Under the pieces are notes generated by a model. It was not told the origin of the DNA and searched no databases. It saw nothing but the letters and a program-made list of their open reading frames with translations. From IMG/VR virus record IMGVR_UViG_3300028895_000881, positions 1 to 64,000 of that record: a stretch of 64,000 bases of DNA; one strand, written 5' to 3'. The translations under genes and the position numbers were made by a program. Shown here piece by piece: positions 7,708-13,676 of this stretch; position 1 is the stretch's first letter, and each line of letters opens with the position of its first letter. Source of the stretch: a virus.

Positions 7708-8271
7708 TCAGTACTTCAATCCTTTGCGGTACCGTGCGTTTTTCTTTTTCTGACGTGTGCGTCCTCGTCCTCGGTTACGGCCTTTCGCAAAAGGGCTTAG
7801 TGCGTGGCAGTTTGGGCAGATGAGTCGGACGTTTTCTTCAGCATTGTTGTCAGAGTTCCCGTCGATGTGGTCCATTTCCAGAGGAATCGGTTTTTTGAGC
7901 CAGTGAGTCCTTCCACAACCTTCGCAGCGATGAGAGCGTGTCCGCAAAAGGTATCGCCTCCGGGTTTGGTCTGAAGTAATCTCCGTCCATGCCTTACGTC
8001 CTAAATGTTCTCCTTGTTCGATGCAGGCATCGCAGTAAGTGTTGAAATGACCTACCGCGTATGCTCGCGTGGGTTCCCCACAGTTTTTGCAAGGTGGAGG
8101 GGCTTGGCCGGTGCCAACTCGGTTTCGAGTCTTCTTGGCCGCACAGGAGTGGTCGCAGTATTTGGCTTGCCGTTTTTCGTAAGGGAGTTCTTTCTGGCAG
8201 TACGCACACAGTTTGGGGTTTTGCTTGTAAGCGGCCTTCGCTGCTAAAGATCGTTTGGTGCTGCTATGCAC
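7708..8271 (-). CDS. HNH endonuclease inserted between tRNA-Thr genes
   Basis: CEGCG...PLEMDHIDGNSDNN..ENVRLICPNCH; probable GTG start at 8271, since the longer ORF call runs through two tRNAs. Confidence 0.85.
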   Translation of the reverse strand: MHSSTKRSLAAKAAYKQNPKLCAYCQKELPYEKRQAKYCDHSCAAKKTRNRVGTGQAPPPCKNCGEPTRAYAVGHFNTYCDACIEQGEHLGRKAWTEITSDQTRRRYLLRTRSHRCEGCGRTHWLKKPIPLEMDHIDGNSDNNAEENVRLICPNCHALSPFAKGRNRGRGRTRQKKKNARYRKGLKY

Positions 8272-8306
8272 GGAGTTAAAATAGCACGTCGCTTTGACTC
8301 GTGCCG

Positions 8307-8382
8307 TGGAGCCGCCGGGGGGACTCGAACCCCCTGCCTCTTGATTACGAATCAAGTGCACTGCCAGTTGTGCTTCAGCGGC
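8307..8382 (-). tRNA. tRNA-Thr(CGT)
   Basis: CTTGA-TTCGTAA-TCAAG anticodon arm, CCA end. Confidence 0.9.
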
Positions 8383-8426
8383 ATGGTAAAGGCTATCCAG
8401 GCATGTCTTTCCTTGAGTGAAGAGTT

Positions 8427-8502
8427 TGGAGCTGACGATAGGAGTCGAACCTACAACCCCCTGATTACAAATCAGGTGCTCTGCCAATTGAGCTACGCCA
8501 GC
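8427..8502 (-). tRNA. tRNA-Thr(TGT)
   Basis: CCTGA-TTTGTAA-TCAGG anticodon arm, CCA end. Confidence 0.9.
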
Positions 8503-8613
8503 TTGAGTGGCCAGCGTGGCCAGCGTGGCCAGGTCCGCGTTGAGCTCCCCTTCCGGGGTCCCCGGCGGGTGTTCTTCACTCTGTTAGAGGTCGGTCTACA
8601 CGCCGGGAAATGC

Positions 8614-8709
8614 TCAACACGAGGTCGTATCGCCCATAATGGGGCGTACGACGGCCACGACGACCATGGCGGTCGTTGTCGTGGTGAGTTCTGTCGTGGA
8701 GCGTTTCAT
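8614..8709 (-). CDS. thrL-like leader peptide MKRSTTELTTTTTAMVVVAVVRPIMGDTTSC
   Basis: 31 aa with 9 Thr and 5 Val; lies between a sigma70-like promoter and the first tRNA-Thr. Confidence 0.7.
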   Translation of the reverse strand: MKRSTTELTTTTTAMVVVAVVRPIMGDTTSC

Positions 8710-8755
8710 GGCGTGAGTTCCGAGTCGCCGGCCTGCCAAGGGAGGCGACAGAGTG

Positions 8756-8784
8756 GGTCTACTTTCCCTCTGACGAGAAGTCAA
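8756..8784 (-). promoter_or_regulatory. Sigma70-like promoter for the minus-strand tRNA operon
   Basis: TTGACT-17 nt-TAGACC. Confidence 0.6.
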
Positions 8785-8862
8785 GAGGACCCTTCAACTT
8801 TTTTGGCGTCGTCGCGCACGTCTTGTTGACACGAGGTGATAGCGACCCTATCCTCTTCATGA

Positions 8863-9099
8863 ATGGCCGACAAGAACATCAAGACCGGCATCGTCGAACT
8901 CGACGAGCTTCTCTCCGGAGAGGGTCGGTTGGACCTGTCTGTCTTCTCGGCCGGACCGGGCAAAACCACCTTGCGCGAGCAGATGATCAAAAAAGCTCTC
9001 GAGGGAGGTGCGGTCTACGTGGATTTCGACTTCGAGATGAAGCCGAAGTTTGACGAAGAAGCTCTCGGCGTTCCGCCGGACAAGCCCATCATGCCCTAG
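8863..9099 (+). CDS. Small hypothetical protein
   Basis: 78-aa ORF followed by a hairpin with an 11-bp base (9093-9140). Confidence 0.5.
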   Translation: MADKNIKTGIVELDELLSGEGRLDLSVFSAGPGKTTLREQMIKKALEGGAVYVDFDFEMKPKFDEEALGVPPDKPIMP

Positions 9100-9153
9100 C
9101 CCGGCTCGAGCGCGTGGTGCTCTCGGGTTCGGGCTAGGGCGGAAAGCCCAGGC

Positions 9154-9438
9154 ATGTCCCAACGAGCACTTCGTCGTCATCACCGCGATCGTATGATCGC
9201 CCGAGCCCGCCACGTCACCCGACGCTGGCACAACTCCTACGAGCAAGACTGGAACGATCCTCTTACTCGTCCCGACCACACCAAAGCGGACGAGCAAGCG
9301 ACTCGGATCCACGACCACCTCAAGGTCTGCTCCTGTTCCGGATGCGGCAACCCTCGACGTGGGGGTTGGGATGAGCCGCGTACTCGACAGGAGCTTCGAG
9401 CCGAGCTCGACCTTCAAGACCAGCTCGAAGAAATCTGA
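9154..9438 (+). CDS. Small basic protein with CSCSGCGNPRR motif
   Basis: 94-aa ORF, Arg-rich N-terminus, Cys cluster. Confidence 0.6.
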   Translation: MSQRALRRHHRDRMIARARHVTRRWHNSYEQDWNDPLTRPDHTKADEQATRIHDHLKVCSCSGCGNPRRGGWDEPRTRQELRAELDLQDQLEEI

Positions 9439-9447
9439 ATCACAGGG

Positions 9448-9476
9448 TTGACTTCTTCGTCAACGGCCCCTAGAAC
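9448..9476 (+). promoter_or_regulatory. Sigma70-like promoter for the Lys tRNA operon
   Basis: TTGACT-17 nt-TAGAAC; overlaps the palindrome TTGAC-N6-GTCAA. Confidence 0.6.
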
Positions 9477-9486
9477 GAGACGCATC

Positions 9487-9519
9487 ATGTTCTGCATGAA
9501 ACGCAAGTCCAAGCTTTAG
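9487..9519 (+). CDS. Lys-rich leader mini-ORF (MFC)MKRKSKL
   Basis: Directly after the promoter; codons AAA, AAG, AAG; followed by hairpin 9519-9553 and then tRNA-Lys. Confidence 0.5.
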   Translation: MFCMKRKSKL

Positions 9520-9572
9520 CCCGTGGGGATGGTTCACTCCGTCCTTCACGGGCGTCGTAGTGATACATCCTC

Positions 9573-9646
9573 GGGCCGGTAGCTCAGTCTGCGTAGAGCG
9601 AGGGACTCTTACCCCCTAGGCGTGAGTTCGAATCTCACCCGGCTCT
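9573..9646 (+). tRNA. tRNA-Lys(CTT), imperfect anticodon stem
   Basis: GGGCCGG/CCGGCTC acceptor, AGGGA-CTCTTAC-CCCCT, GTGAG-TTCGAAT-CTCAC; no encoded CCA. Confidence 0.75.
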
Positions 9647-9756
9647 CTTCAACGAGGATCGCAAACATGGTCGTGTAAAACAGACGGCCAGCGACTCCTC
9701 GGGCAGAGAAGGTGATCGCCAACGGGCAGCGTTGGAACGATGTCTCCTGCCAACCT

Positions 9757-9842
9757 GGGCCGAACGCACAGTCTGGTTGGTGCAGCGGACTTTTAATCCG
9801 CCGGACGAAAGTCCCTCGTGGGTTCAAATCCCACTCGGCTCT
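9757..9842 (+). tRNA. tRNA-Lys(TTT) with long variable arm
   Basis: GCGGA-CTTTTAA-TCCGC, variable arm GGAC-GAAA-GTCC, T arm GTGGG-TTCAAAT-CCCAC. Confidence 0.8.
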
Positions 9843-9844
9843 CT

Positions 9845-9935
9845 GAGAAACACAGCGCGTGGGCATCTCCTGCTAGCGGGGGTTCCGGTTCGACTCCGGA
9901 TGGGCTGTAGAGGATCGTACCCTCATGTGTTTCTC
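9845..9935 (+). ncRNA. Structured tRNA-mimic ncRNA candidate
   Basis: 10-bp closing stem GAGAAACACA/TGTGTTTCTC enclosing a canonical T arm TCCGG-TTCGACT-CCGGA and two more hairpins. Confidence 0.45.
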
Positions 9936-9939
9936 TCCT

Positions 9940-10013
9940 GGGCCCATAGCTCAACCTGGTAGAGCAGCAGACTCTTAATCTGACGGTTGAAGGTTCAATT
10001 CCTTCTGGGCTCA
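9940..10013 (+). tRNA. tRNA-Lys(CTT)
   Basis: GCAGA-CTCTTAA-TCTGA anticodon arm, normal D and T arms. Confidence 0.85.
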
Positions 10014-10036
10014 CTACCTCTCGGTAAAATAGACAC

Positions 10037-10456
10037 ATGGCACGATCACGACCACTACAGGAAGCCCACCAGATCGCAGAGGCATACTCCCGCGAGCTGG
10101 ATCGTCGTGCCCGCGAATCGAAGACGATGGACAGCCGCTTCAACTACGCGGTGCAAGTTCTTCACGAAGAGGGCACCTCGTTCTTCTACCGGAACGCTTT
10201 CACGGTGCGGTGGGGGATCTGGCACATCGTCATCCCCGAACACCACGACATCGCCGTCTACGCGAACGACGAAGTACAGGTCTTCATGTTCAAGATGGCC
10301 CCGGACGAAGTCGAGGAGATCGCGGACGTGTCCCAGCTCGGTATCGACGAAGCCACGCTCGAGTGGGGTCCGGACCCCTACGGCACGCTGAAACGCAAGG
10401 CCGAGGAGGACGCCGCACTCGAAGCGGAAGACCCCTCGGCCGACCCCAACCTTTAG
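10037..10456 (+). CDS. Hypothetical protein
   Basis: 139-aa ORF; TAAAAT box 6 nt upstream of ATG. Confidence 0.65.
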   Translation: MARSRPLQEAHQIAEAYSRELDRRARESKTMDSRFNYAVQVLHEEGTSFFYRNAFTVRWGIWHIVIPEHHDIAVYANDEVQVFMFKMAPDEVEEIADVSQLGIDEATLEWGPDPYGTLKRKAEEDAALEAEDPSADPNL

Positions 10457-10548
10457 GGCGGGTATAGCGTAGCTGGCCGAACGCACCGGACTTTTAATCC
10501 GGCGAAGAGAAATCCCCATCGTGGGTTCGAATCCCACCCCGCTCTCCA
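10456..10548 (+). tRNA. tRNA-Lys(TTT) with long variable region
   Basis: CCGGA-CTTTTAA-TCCGG, 18-nt variable region, GTGGG-TTCGAAT-CCCAC, CCA end. Confidence 0.8.
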
Positions 10549-10580
10549 CTTTGAATTGCGATCGTGGTATAAAAGCCTCG

Positions 10581-11024
10581 ATGCAACGGAAAAAGTGCGG
10601 CACATGCAAACGGAGTCGCATGGTGAAGTTTTTCAACGCCAAGGCCGCAAGCCCTGACGGCCTCCAAAGCACGTGCCGCGATTGCAACCGTCGAAACGCC
10701 AAAGCGTACTACGAACGAAATCGAGACTCACACAAAAAGAAAATGGTCGCCTACGCAGCGAAATACAAAAGCCGCGTCGCCCGGCAAGTGTGGGACTACC
10801 TTCTGGAACACCCCTGTGTGGACTGCGGAGAAACCGACCCGGTGGTCTTGGACTTCGACCACGTTCGTGGCACAAAATTCAGACCCATCAGCAGTATGCT
10901 CGCCAACAAAATGTCCTGGAAACGCATTCAGGACGAAATCACCAAGTGTGAAGTACGGTGTGCTAACTGCCATCGCCGGAAGACCGCCAAGGATTTCAAC
11001 TGGCACGCCAGTTTCCGCGACTGA
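10581..11024 (+). CDS. HNH-like endonuclease
   Basis: KKCGTC...DGLQSTCRDC, PCVDCG...LDFDHV...KCEVRCANCHRRKT. Confidence 0.8.
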   Translation: MQRKKCGTCKRSRMVKFFNAKAASPDGLQSTCRDCNRRNAKAYYERNRDSHKKKMVAYAAKYKSRVARQVWDYLLEHPCVDCGETDPVVLDFDHVRGTKFRPISSMLANKMSWKRIQDEITKCEVRCANCHRRKTAKDFNWHASFRD

Positions 11025-11077: not shown

Positions 11078-11998
11078 ATGGCAGCGTTAGCACTAGATGG
11101 GGGAGGCGTCCGAGGTCTCATCACAGCCGCGTGGCTGGAGTATCTCGACGAGCACACCGACAAACCCCTGCTCGACTACTTCGACGTGGTTGCCGGCACC
11201 AGCGCCGGGAGCATCAACGCGATGGGCCTCGCGTTAGGACTCTCTGGCCGCGATGTTCGCGAGCTCTTCCAAGTGAACGCACCAGAGATCTTCCCATGGT
11301 GTCTTCCCCGGTGGGCCGACAAGGCTGCCCGGATCCCGAGTCAGGGTCTCTCCTCGCCCAAGTACGGCTCAGAACGTCTCGTCGATGCGATGCGCAACGT
11401 GTTTGGTGAGCGCCTCTTCGGTGACGCAAAGATCCGCTGCCTGGTGACCACGTACTCGATGACTGAATCTCGAGCACTGATCCTCGACAGCGCGAACCCG
11501 GACCATGCCGATCTCCCGATGTGGAAGGTCGTCGCAGCCTCCTCGGCCGCGCCGGTGTTCTTCCCGGCCATGTGCCTCAAAGTCGGGGGTGTCGATCATG
11601 TTGTCGTGGATGGAGGTGTCGCCATCAACGACCCGGCCCTCACGGCCAGCACCGCGCTTCGTGAAATGACGGGCAAGGATTTCACGAATCTGTTCCTGCT
11701 GAGCCTCGGTACCGGACACCCTGTTACCAAGGACAAGCTGTACGAGCTCAAGGGTGCGGGTCTGTGGGACTGGGGCATCGGCCTCGTGCACTTCCTTCTG
11801 ACGGCTCCGAGCGACCACACGGACTACGTGTGCCGCCGCCTTCACGGTGACAACTACCACCGTGTGCAGGTCCGAGTCCCCTACGATGAGTTCGACATCG
11901 ACGACGCTTCGAAGAAGAACCTCGAACGTCTCCTCCACACGGCAGCTTCGGCGTTCAGCGAGCTCGATCCGATCGTCGAAGCGCTGGAGTCCCTTTAG
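11078..11998 (+). CDS. Patatin-like phospholipase
   Basis: DGGGVRG oxyanion loop, GTSAG nucleophile motif, SSAAP, DGG. Confidence 0.92.
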   Translation: MAALALDGGGVRGLITAAWLEYLDEHTDKPLLDYFDVVAGTSAGSINAMGLALGLSGRDVRELFQVNAPEIFPWCLPRWADKAARIPSQGLSSPKYGSERLVDAMRNVFGERLFGDAKIRCLVTTYSMTESRALILDSANPDHADLPMWKVVAASSAAPVFFPAMCLKVGGVDHVVVDGGVAINDPALTASTALREMTGKDFTNLFLLSLGTGHPVTKDKLYELKGAGLWDWGIGLVHFLLTAPSDHTDYVCRRLHGDNYHRVQVRVPYDEFDIDDASKKNLERLLHTAASAFSELDPIVEALESL

Positions 11999-12080
11999 CC
12001 GCCTTCCGGGCATGACCGGCTTCCTCTATCCTTGTTTTTTGACGGAAGAGAAAATAGGTTGCGAGCAGCAAAAGGAGGGC

Positions 12081-12983
12081 ATGGGACGCCCTCGAAAACA
12101 ACTACCCGATGAGGAGATTGTAGCTCTTTACCAGGAAGGCCACTCCGAATCGTCTTTGGCACAACGATTCAGAACAAGTCGAAGCTCCATACATCGCCGT
12201 CTCGTTTCTGCGGGAGTCGACCCTCGCAACGCTGTTGAGACCACCGCTCTACGGACTCGGAAAACTTTCCCTGTTACGGAGAGGTTCCTCGAACTCGTGG
12301 ATGGCCTCCTTCTGGGGGATGCTTGGATTGAGGTATACGGCACTAGCGAAGGGCGTCTAGGGCTGGAGCAGACCTGTCATCACGAAGCATGGATCGAAGC
12401 GGTGGCGAAAGAGTTCGCTGGGCTAAACATCTCAACCAATCATAAATGCCGACGTGCCCGGAAAAAATCCGTGGTTTTAAGGACGCACAAATACATGCCT
12501 TTTACCGCGCAACGGCATCGGTGGTACCCAAAAGGTGAGAAGCGTGTTCCTGTTGATGTGCATCTCTCTCCTCGCTCTCTTGCTCACTGGTACTGGGGAG
12601 ACGGGGCTACGGTGAATGATGGGTATGGGATGCTTTTTCACACTGAGGGGTTCAACGAAGAGGATGTCGCACTGCTCCGAGCAAGACTGAAAAAAGTTTA
12701 CGGATGGGACACAACCCAACGGGAACGGCGCCCAGGCCAATTCACGATTGGCCTGTACCGACAAAAATATCGAGATGAGCTCGTGAAGTTGATCGAACCC
12801 TACTGTCCTTCATGTTTCCGATACAAAATCAAAACAAGAACCAGAGCGCCATCGAAAATTTCTGAAGTCGAGGCCGAGTTACGCACACTTAGATCTGAAG
12901 GGCTCACTCAGCGACAAATTTCTGAACACTTTCGAATGTCCCCAGGTTGGGGAGGATGGGCCTGCCGAAAACTCGGCATCTGA
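12081..12983 (+). CDS. Free-standing LAGLIDADG homing endonuclease with HTH motifs
   Basis: LVDGLLLGDA and LAHWYWGDG motifs; AAGGAGG SD before ATG 12081. Confidence 0.85.
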   Translation: MGRPRKQLPDEEIVALYQEGHSESSLAQRFRTSRSSIHRRLVSAGVDPRNAVETTALRTRKTFPVTERFLELVDGLLLGDAWIEVYGTSEGRLGLEQTCHHEAWIEAVAKEFAGLNISTNHKCRRARKKSVVLRTHKYMPFTAQRHRWYPKGEKRVPVDVHLSPRSLAHWYWGDGATVNDGYGMLFHTEGFNEEDVALLRARLKKVYGWDTTQRERRPGQFTIGLYRQKYRDELVKLIEPYCPSCFRYKIKTRTRAPSKISEVEAELRTLRSEGLTQRQISEHFRMSPGWGGWACRKLGI

Positions 12984-12994
12984 AAGGATAAACC

Positions 12995-13676
12995 ATGGAA
13001 ACGTTACTCGTTGAAATCAGGAGTGGGGAGGGCGGCGAAGATGCCAAACTCCTCGTACAAGAGCAATACCGTATTTACAGCCGGTATTGCTCTTTGGAGC
13101 GTCTTTGACCACGAACTACTCGAGGATCGCCCCGGCTTTTTGCTGATGCGCGTCACGGGTAGGAACGCCTCCCAAGCGTTCTGCCATGAGTCCGGTGGGC
13201 ACCGTTTTCAGCGCGTACCACCCAACGAAAAAAGAGGCCGGGTACACACCAGTACGGTGACGGTAGCCATTCTCGAGGAACCTTCAGAACACGAAGTTCG
13301 CATTGACCCTCGTGATCTTGAAGAGCAGTTCACTCGAGGATCGGGCAAAGGAGGCCAGCACCGGAACAAGACGGATACGTGCGTGATCCTAAAACACAAA
13401 CCGTCGGGCATTCAGGTGCGAGTAGACGGTGGCCGCAGCCAGGCAGACAACCGTCTCTCTGCGTTAGGCATTTTGAGAGCTCGCCTAAAAGCCGCAGGGA
13501 CAACCAAAAAAACCAAAGAGCGGAATGCCAAGCGACGTCGTCAGGTGGGCACCGGAATGAGGGGAGATAAAGTACGCACTATCGCCATGCAGCGCGACAC
13601 CGTCACCGACCACAACACAGGCAAAACAATGAGGGCCAAACATTACCTGCGAGGAAACCTCAGCGATCTTTGGTAA
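12995..13676 (+). CDS. Minimal class-I peptide chain release factor (RF1-like), expressed via +1 programmed frameshift at 13103-13109
   Basis: ORF1 METLLVEIRSGEGGEDA...ERL ends CTT-TGA-C; +1 frame carries HESGGHRFQRVPPNEKRGRVHTS and GSGKGGQHRNKTD (GGQ); about 226 aa, lacks domain 1. Confidence 0.88.

Follow-up and report, generated by a model that had tools for sequence, protein, structure and literature searches.

Leader peptides are known to act as sensors for genes of amino acid biosynthesis and for some genes of aminoacyl-tRNA synthetases, and T-box riboswitches bind transfer RNA (tRNA) directly and end in a terminator or antiterminator. Among the described leaders that come closest to the element presented here is that of the thr operon of Escherichia coli (thrL; Rfam Thr_leader, RF00506). 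Our subject is a leader of about 250 nucleotides (nt) at the head of a viral tRNA operon, found in a stretch of 64,000 nt (positions 1 to 64,000 of IMG/VR virus record IMGVR_UViG_3300028895_000881, hereafter the window). The record measures 83 kb at an estimated completeness of 16%, and the nearest relative of the window is a 618-kb phage contig. On the minus strand, about 110 nt upstream of an array of 12 tRNA genes, the leader contains a small threonine (Thr)-rich reading frame. We lean, though not strongly, towards the view that this frame lets ribosomes passing through the leader of the Thr-Asp-Val-Ile-Met tRNA operon gauge the supply of the cognate tRNAs.

Several traits recall thrL. The frame is short and starts with MKR, carries runs of Thr codons, lies between a promoter and the genes that it would control, and overlaps helices; the presumed logic would also be shared, in that the speed of the ribosome at Thr codons would report the supply of Thr-tRNA. 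Unlike thrL, the phage leader would control 12 tRNA genes and not thrABC or threonine biosynthesis, it has a single Ile codon and no Ile run (Thr makes up 9 of 31 codons), it possesses neither a U-tract terminator hairpin nor a Shine-Dalgarno (SD) site, and the frame itself is a three-way junction. An earlier note made from the letters of this DNA (the initial annotation) had called the peptide thrL-like, and this kinship is not borne out by family searches: an Rfam cmscan of positions 6400-10800 on both strands at E<=1 returned tRNAs and chance matches, none of them in 8503-8760, and the leader peptide had no match in Pfam or NCBIfam at E<=10. By analogy, the leader would work in the manner of a leader-peptide attenuator, and it does not belong to the thrL family. 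Like a T-box riboswitch, it would report the state of a single tRNA species and act on genes concerned with the amino acid of that tRNA; unlike in those riboswitches, the codon triplets of the phage leader are frame-specific, and no Rfam T-box match was obtained.

In mycobacteria, polycysteine leaderless short open reading frames (ORFs) have been proposed as Cys-responsive attenuators (bioRxiv 10.1101/834739). They are the nearest published analogue in the literature that was searched: both are short frames rich in cognate codons, without an SD site or a classical terminator, for which tuning by ribosome speed is proposed. The mycobacterial ORFs are leaderless and act on protein-coding targets, whereas the phage frame has a structured 5' leader of 45 nt and tRNA targets. 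The full-text literature that was searched holds no description of a leader frame controlling tRNA genes, with most subscription journals lying outside its coverage, and a term search of PMC8421152 turned up no leaders or leader peptides, no attenuation, and no small ORFs.

The codon content of the leader frame was confirmed by a codon listing, and the tRNA genes behind it were identified by ARAGORN. Its nine Thr codons are ACG (four), ACC (three), and ACA (two), which match the CGT, GGT, and TGT anticodons of the array as the initial annotation had claimed, and the stated counts for Val (three GTC, one GTG, and one GTA, with GAC and TAC tRNAs present in the array) are likewise correct. The remaining codons of interest are three Met (start included), one Ile (ATT), and one Asp (GAT). 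Counted by frame across the leader frame, ACN triplets number 9/0/3. Among 5268 ATG-started ORFs of 20-40 codons, drawn in six frames from related phage loci (about 1.6 Mb) and one bacterial contig, only 0.11% reach a Thr share of at least 9/31, and some of these are copies of this very leader.

Homologues were collected by way of a vWA protein that neighbors the leader and has hundreds of relatives. Alignment of 28 of these relatives led to 74 viral loci, among which the leader is confined to the closest clade (at least 69% protein identity; nhmmer matches in L002/L016, L015, L012, and L013, the last being identical to L014). Scanning metagenomes once with a pattern taken from the best-conserved block added 20 further stretches. 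After de-duplication there were 16 distinct full phage leaders; two bacterial ones from metagenome-assembled genomes (MAGs) of Nannocystaceae, described below, bring the total to 18. The stop codon was part of the collecting pattern for 12 of the 16 phage leaders; it was not for the four viral relatives reached through the neighboring protein, nor for the bacterial pair. Other routes added little: a near-identity search of phage records gave tRNA matches only, the small neighboring protein encoded at 8863-9099 retrieved no related loci, one of two exact leader patterns had no match among viral contigs and the other found only a known relative, and the contigs of four DNA runs yielded the same phage again together with many unrelated tRNA-Thr genes and no useful variants. 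An invariant 11-mer of the leader occurs once per phage record; further exact copies in a 9.2-Mb MAG gave no profile match.

All 18 leaders share one anatomy, namely a TTGAC-17-TA promoter, a hairpin with the invariant loop CCCTTGGCAGG, the start CGCC-AUG, and an open frame of 24-31 codons that ends in UGU UGA. The initial annotation had named loss of the frame in homologues as an outcome that would speak against its proposal; the frame is open in 18/18, and its view that a small Thr-rich frame heads the operon stands. The promoter reads TTGAC[ATG]-17-TAnnnn in all homologues, with the end of the -10 element 13-16 nt ahead of the invariant loop and the whole lying about 45 nt upstream of the frame, and the alignment with relatives collapses upstream of it. 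It had gone unreported in a generic promoter scan because its -10 element is weak. The distance from AUG to UGA is 93 or 96 nt in 16/16 phage leaders and 75 nt in both bacterial ones, so that every net change in frame length is a multiple of three, unlike in the flanking parts of the leader, where lengths change by other amounts. Behind the leader, the array opens with Thr TGT followed by Thr CGT in 24/24 loci with downstream DNA (the window included), and Thr GGT comes next wherever the contig continues.

Thr is the sole amino acid robustly enriched in all 16 phage versions. In-frame ACN triplets number 7-10 per leader, compared with 0-2 and 1-3 in the other two frames, and in the L089 clade they are still distributed 7/0/1 although hairpin H1 (see below) has lost its ACG repeat there. 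The unpaired linker contributes as well: of the 32 codons at positions 7-8 of the frame, 14 encode Thr. The proposal that the codons mirror the whole downstream operon consequently holds for Thr in 16/16 leaders and not for the other amino acids: the Val codons largely form the complementary hairpin arm and fall to two or three in some phage versions, while Ile, Asp, and internal Met contribute 0-3 codons each across these versions (Ile 0-2).

The bacterial homologues stand before different tRNAs. Genome contigs were searched with a frame-agnostic pattern made up of the invariant loop and GCCATGA, which returned mostly noise; with 159 new loci screened, the only new significant homologue among the matches listed was L158 (CAZUPD010000120.1; nhmmer E=8e-8 against the phage profile, reciprocal E down to 4.5e-6). 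Its 25-kb contig belongs to a Nannocystaceae MAG and carries ordinary bacterial genes (transporter, acyl-CoA dehydrogenase, Ser/Thr kinase, PspA, and ligase). A second Nannocystaceae MAG carries the element at 87% identity (L299, G026:C26). Only these two of 73 genomes of the family, and the same two of 401 sampled genomes of the class, hold the element. Both retain the promoter, the invariant loop, CGCC-AUG, and CCG-UGU-UGA. The tRNAs that follow are Met twice up to the contig end in L158 and Met-Met-Phe-Met-Phe-Met in L299, and the frames encode MIRSTNMMYMYTPGARFMCVMAPC and MIRFTNMMYMYTPGARFMCVMAPC, respectively. The six ATG triplets all lie in the reading frame (6/0/0), a Met share of at least 6/24 being reached by 0.038% of the 5268 small ORFs; ACN triplets are spread 2/3/2, and the Thr bias is gone. 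The frames further hold one or two Phe codons, two in one of the two MAGs. One scaffold whose codon content follows the tRNAs behind it is what a ribosome-read sensor would be expected to show and would be hard to obtain from pairing alone. The presence of the homologue in Nannocystaceae MAGs also provides a host lead for this uncultured phage clade of roughly 150-620 kb (records G004, G003, and G001); the GC content is 61% in the L158 contig and 60% in the window.

The leader is a structured cis-acting RNA whose helices are kept by compensatory and wobble-compatible changes, and the 298-nt leader folds far more stably than shuffled sequences (z = -5.57). The positions of its elements and of the other features discussed here are collected in the table. 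The stem of the 5' hairpin, P1, varies in sequence among homologues and yet pairs in 16/16 single-sequence folds. It is followed by an unpaired A/C-rich stretch ending in CGCC-AUG, and the AUG is unpaired in the consensus fold. A reading of the invariant loop as a sigma-54 promoter or as a T-box element was dropped by eye, as neither the spacing nor the discriminator base agrees with it. Within the frame, a closing stem and two hairpins (H1 and H2) make up a three-way junction, and the same three elements arise from the frame alone in 16/16 single-sequence folds (folding free energy, dG, -29.7 to -43.3 kcal/mol). H2 shows compensatory changes (CG 9, GC 5, and AU 1 at one pair; CG 11 and UA 5 at another). 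Downstream, helix B and a small CCCC-loop-GGGG hairpin lie inside helix C, which includes the stop codon in its 5' strand, CGUGUUGAGC; the partner of this strand in homologues is GCUCAACRCG, about 70 nt farther downstream. Taken jointly, H2, C, B, and the small hairpin are paired in 96.3% of cells, compared with 36-48% for slid partners, and their covariation score of 0.212 (0.018-0.071 for slid partners) was reached by 0/500 shuffles. The stop-codon segment can alternatively pair with the start-codon segment, in 87.2% of cells versus 30-52% for slid partners; the covariation of 0.054 lies within the 0.014-0.068 of the slid controls, so that this pairing shows no clear covariation. As the stop segment could pair with either the helix C partner or the start segment, the RNA may have two mutually exclusive pairings around the ends of the frame.

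The Thr run and the Val run form the two arms of an imperfect palindrome, and the plus strand therefore also reads a T-run followed by a V-run. The resulting mirror ORF is open in 16/16 homologues and is a by-product of the palindromic hairpin, which serves as a warning against taking open frames in this region as genes.

No terminator-like site was detected by a terminator scan on the minus strand between the leader frame and the first tRNA (8614-8502), in agreement with the initial annotation; across 6400-10700 the scan returned three sites, all on the plus strand, against 3.9 expected from shuffles. The GC hairpins between frame and first tRNA have no U runs after them, and at the site directly ahead of the first tRNA a small hairpin of different sequence is found in other homologues as well. 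Classical attenuation was rejected, as there is no terminator and the candidate 3:4 pairing CCGGGG/CCCCGG appears weak or absent in several homologues when the alignment is inspected by eye.

Positions of the leader elements, the tRNA genes, and neighboring features in the window
Feature	Positions	Strand	Details
Leader reading frame	8614-8709	-	31 codons + UGA; ATG at 8709, TGA at 8616-8614; encodes MKRSTTELTTTTTAMVVVAVVRPIMGDTTSC; 9 Thr codons; open in 16/16 phage and 2/2 bacterial homologues
TTG-started longer version of the frame	8784-8614	-	ORF listing
tRNA-operon promoter	8756-8784	-	-35 TTGACT (8784-8779), 17-nt spacer, -10 TAGACC (8761-8756); conserved in homologues
5' hairpin P1	8724-8749	-	stem GUCGCC/GGCGAC; loop holding invariant CCCUUGGCAGG (8742-8732), identical in 18/18
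Three-way junction within the frame	8618-8698	-	closing stem CACGA/UCGUG (8698-8694 with 8622-8618); H1 8684-8655 (Thr-run arm with Val-run arm); H2 8652-8624
Thr/Val palindrome	8648-8685		imperfect
Second junction	8536-8621	-	helix C 8621-8612 CGUGUUGAGC (stop codon inside) with 8545-8536 GCUCAACGCG; helix B 8609-8601 with 8567-8559; CCCC-GGAA-GGGG hairpin 8558-8547; RNAalifold consensus
Short GC hairpin(s)	8509-8530	-	from 9-nt repeat GUGGCCAGC (plus-strand reading); directly ahead of the first tRNA
tRNA array	8502-6630	-	Thr TGT, Thr CGT, Thr GGT (2), Asp GTC (2), Val TAC, Val GAC, Ile GAT (2), Met CAT (2); ARAGORN
tRNA-Thr(TGT)	8427-8502	-	first gene of the array; ARAGORN, Rfam cmscan
tRNA-Thr(CGT)	8382-8307	-	
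tRNA-Thr(GGT), two copies	7697-7622 and 7492-7423	-	
Mini-ORF before tRNA-Asp	7363-7412	-	
Mini-ORF before tRNA-Ile(GAT)	6976-7030	-	MEIESDISDIISS...
Head of the Lys tRNA array	9443-9572	+	TTGACT-17-TAGAAC promoter
Mirror ORF	8639-8716	+	MGRTTATTTMAVVVVVSSVVERFMA
Two HNH endonuclease genes and one LAGLIDADG endonuclease gene	7708-8259, 5848-6594, 11847-12983	-, -, +	in or beside the tRNA arrays
Promoter region up to the start of the divergent gene 8863-9099	8826-8863	+	TTGACA-17-TATCCT
Release-factor-like short protein	13011-13676	+	Pfam RF-1 and PCRF domains

Further small frames are found beside the tRNA genes of this phage group. The mini-ORF before tRNA-Asp has a strong SD site (GAAAGGAG) and an ATG, comprises 10-16 codons with 5-8 Asp, and runs into the tRNA. 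It is present in 13/13 distinct relatives with changing length and sequence, and the Asp mini-ORFs are the most extreme cognate-rich windows among 603 tRNA-upstream gaps. The mini-ORF before tRNA-Ile(GAT), which mostly has two or three Ile codons and ends in or at the tRNA, occurs in 9/10 listed relatives, in most of them with an SD site; L016 is the relative without it. As these SD-led frames recur in the relatives, translation beside tRNA genes appears to be a habit of the phage group, a point in favor of a ribosome-read Thr leader. The Lys tRNA array has a promoter of its own and a tiny frame, (MFC)MKRKSKL, followed by a hairpin, and its head shares AUGAAACGC with the Thr leader. In relatives (L015, L086, L088, L012, and L013), KRK(S/T)KL or LKRKT is kept while the starts differ (ATG, or only GTG/CTG). 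A Tyr tRNA pair in relatives (L098 ~6472-6580, minus strand) is preceded by an SD site and MKYATYRAYAW, and the Leu(TAA)/Leu(CAA) pairs of L087, L089, L100, and L103 are preceded by MTLYRPYDTRLRHSLSE with rare TTG and TTA codons. The Asp, Ile, Lys, Tyr, and Leu heads are other designs and not versions of the Thr-leader scaffold.

From these elements the following course of events can be proposed for the Thr leader. Transcription would start about 45 nt ahead of the AUG, and the RNA would fold into the 5' hairpin with its invariant loop, the unpaired A/C-rich AUG stretch, and the frame as a three-way junction, followed by the second junction with the stop codon in its outer helix. A ribosome might then initiate at the exposed AUG without an SD site and, while reading, would meet 7-10 Thr codons (ACG, ACA, and ACC), exactly those served by the three kinds of Thr tRNA encoded behind the leader. 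With plentiful Thr-tRNA it would proceed to the UGA and melt helices C and B; with Thr-tRNA in short supply it would wait early in the frame and leave the downstream junction folded. The state of the junction would in turn set the amount of tRNA made or matured, and by analogy with attenuators, waiting ribosomes should raise the output. Since no terminator was found, the output would have to run through processing, stability, or factor-dependent termination. We would give an even chance to a broader view, in which the scaffold shared by phages and Nannocystaceae is a ribosome test track for tRNA supply, its frame rewritten with the codons of the tRNAs that follow (Thr; Met/Phe) to allow terminator-free control of an untranslated tRNA operon, and in which the Asp and Ile mini-ORFs would complete a layered feedback for each amino acid.

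Several observations weigh against a ribosome-read sensor, and some of them would suit a purely structural, non-coding 5' leader that acts through stability, processing by RNase P or RNase E, antitermination, or a released small RNA, with AUG, UGA, and frame as by-products of pairing segments built from ACGAC/GUCGU repeats. We hold this explanation to be possible, if on the doubtful side. It agrees with the strong, covariation-supported conservation of structure and with the location of AUG and UGA in invariant blocks that are able to pair together. Few parts of the leader are folded as tightly as the frame (dG -30 to -43 kcal/mol over 93-96 nt), and as the Thr and Val runs are hairpin arms, much of the codon bias could stem from pairing. 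Its openness is weak evidence, for the in-phase antisense frame is open in 16/16 and the sense +2 frame in 13/16 leaders. An SD-like 4-mer (GGAG, GAGG, AGGA, or AAGG) within 22 nt of the AUG is present in 0/18; by a rough count such motifs precede 9/25 first starts of long ORFs in the window against a background of 0.16, and SD sites are found at the Asp and Ile mini-ORFs within this operon. Neither the terminator scan nor the other analyses revealed a recognizable output device in the leader, and minimum free energy modeling with masked ribosome footprints gave noisy folds from which none emerged clearly. The ratio of nonsynonymous to synonymous change (pN/pS) is 0.88 in the frame versus 0.93 and 0.84 in the shifted frames, and the variable columns are distributed 20/21/21 over the codon positions, which shows no codon periodicity and none of the purely synonymous change that the initial annotation had proposed to look for among leaders. 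Triplet-repeat slippage could account for all length changes. What a structural leader leaves unexplained is why every net change in frame length is a multiple of three, why separate ACN clusters, placed in distinct helices and in the linker that stays unpaired, share the phase set by AUG and UGA, and why the homologue that precedes Met/Phe tRNAs carries six ATG triplets in frame and has lost the Thr bias. This co-variation of codons with tRNA identity comprises only two codon classes (n = 2 lineages). Among 26 Thr tRNAs of distant relatives with an upstream gap of at least 150 nt, 25 have no Thr-rich frame and one has a marginal TTG-started one, and a permutation test on 603 non-redundant tRNA-upstream gaps gave a mean percentile of 0.52 versus 0.50 (p=0.03), and 4.8% of the gaps fell within the top 5%. 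With so weak a signal, a general rule of cognate frames in all tRNA gaps of the wider phage family was rejected.

The equality of pN/pS with the shifted frames indicates that the peptide as such is not under selection, and a freely changing amino acid sequence would fit a leader that acts through its codons and not through its product. The same figure makes it very unlikely that the frame is the gene of a small peptide with a function of its own, such as a membrane-active peptide or a toxin with an mRNA folded as in type I toxin-antitoxin systems, co-transcribed with the tRNAs. Such a role would fit the conserved frame, the basic N terminus (MKR) with a partly hydrophobic middle, and the ability of the start region to pair with the end of the frame; the hydrophobic stretch, however, measures just 9-13 residues and is unconserved, the 24-residue peptide of the bacterial homologue is quite different, and no family match was found. 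We judge ribosome-free sensing of tRNA, in which codon triplets would pair with anticodons in a T-box-like or sponge-like manner, to be equally improbable. Triplets complementary to the anticodons are indeed enriched and change with tRNA identity, and the invariant hairpin loop contains UGGC; this loop, however, misfits the U73-CCA end of tRNA-Thr, most Thr triplets are buried in helices, Rfam gave no T-box match, and a frame-specific placement of triplets would be meaningless without a ribosome. The frame-specific placement is accommodated by a ribosome-read sensor, towards which we continue to lean.

If a ribosome-read sensor does head this operon, it would reveal a way for huge phages to adjust the dose of their own tRNAs to what the host supplies or to tRNA-cleaving defenses, and its terminator-free output mechanism would be open to dissection in a compact, testable element of 250 nt. 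If the structural explanation is the right one, the leader would still represent a new conserved structured RNA motif heading tRNA operons.

Some features of the surroundings may be added. The divergent gene 8863-9099 begins about 8 nt after its promoter, and its mRNA may therefore be leaderless; the promoter type TTGAC-17-TA is common to this gene, the Thr leader, and the Lys leader. An HNH endonuclease gene interrupts the tRNA array between Thr CGT and Thr GGT, a second HNH gene and a LAGLIDADG endonuclease gene likewise lie in or beside the arrays, and relatives carry other insertions at these sites. Finally, the gene for a release-factor-like short protein is located 4 kb from the UGA-ending leader frame.

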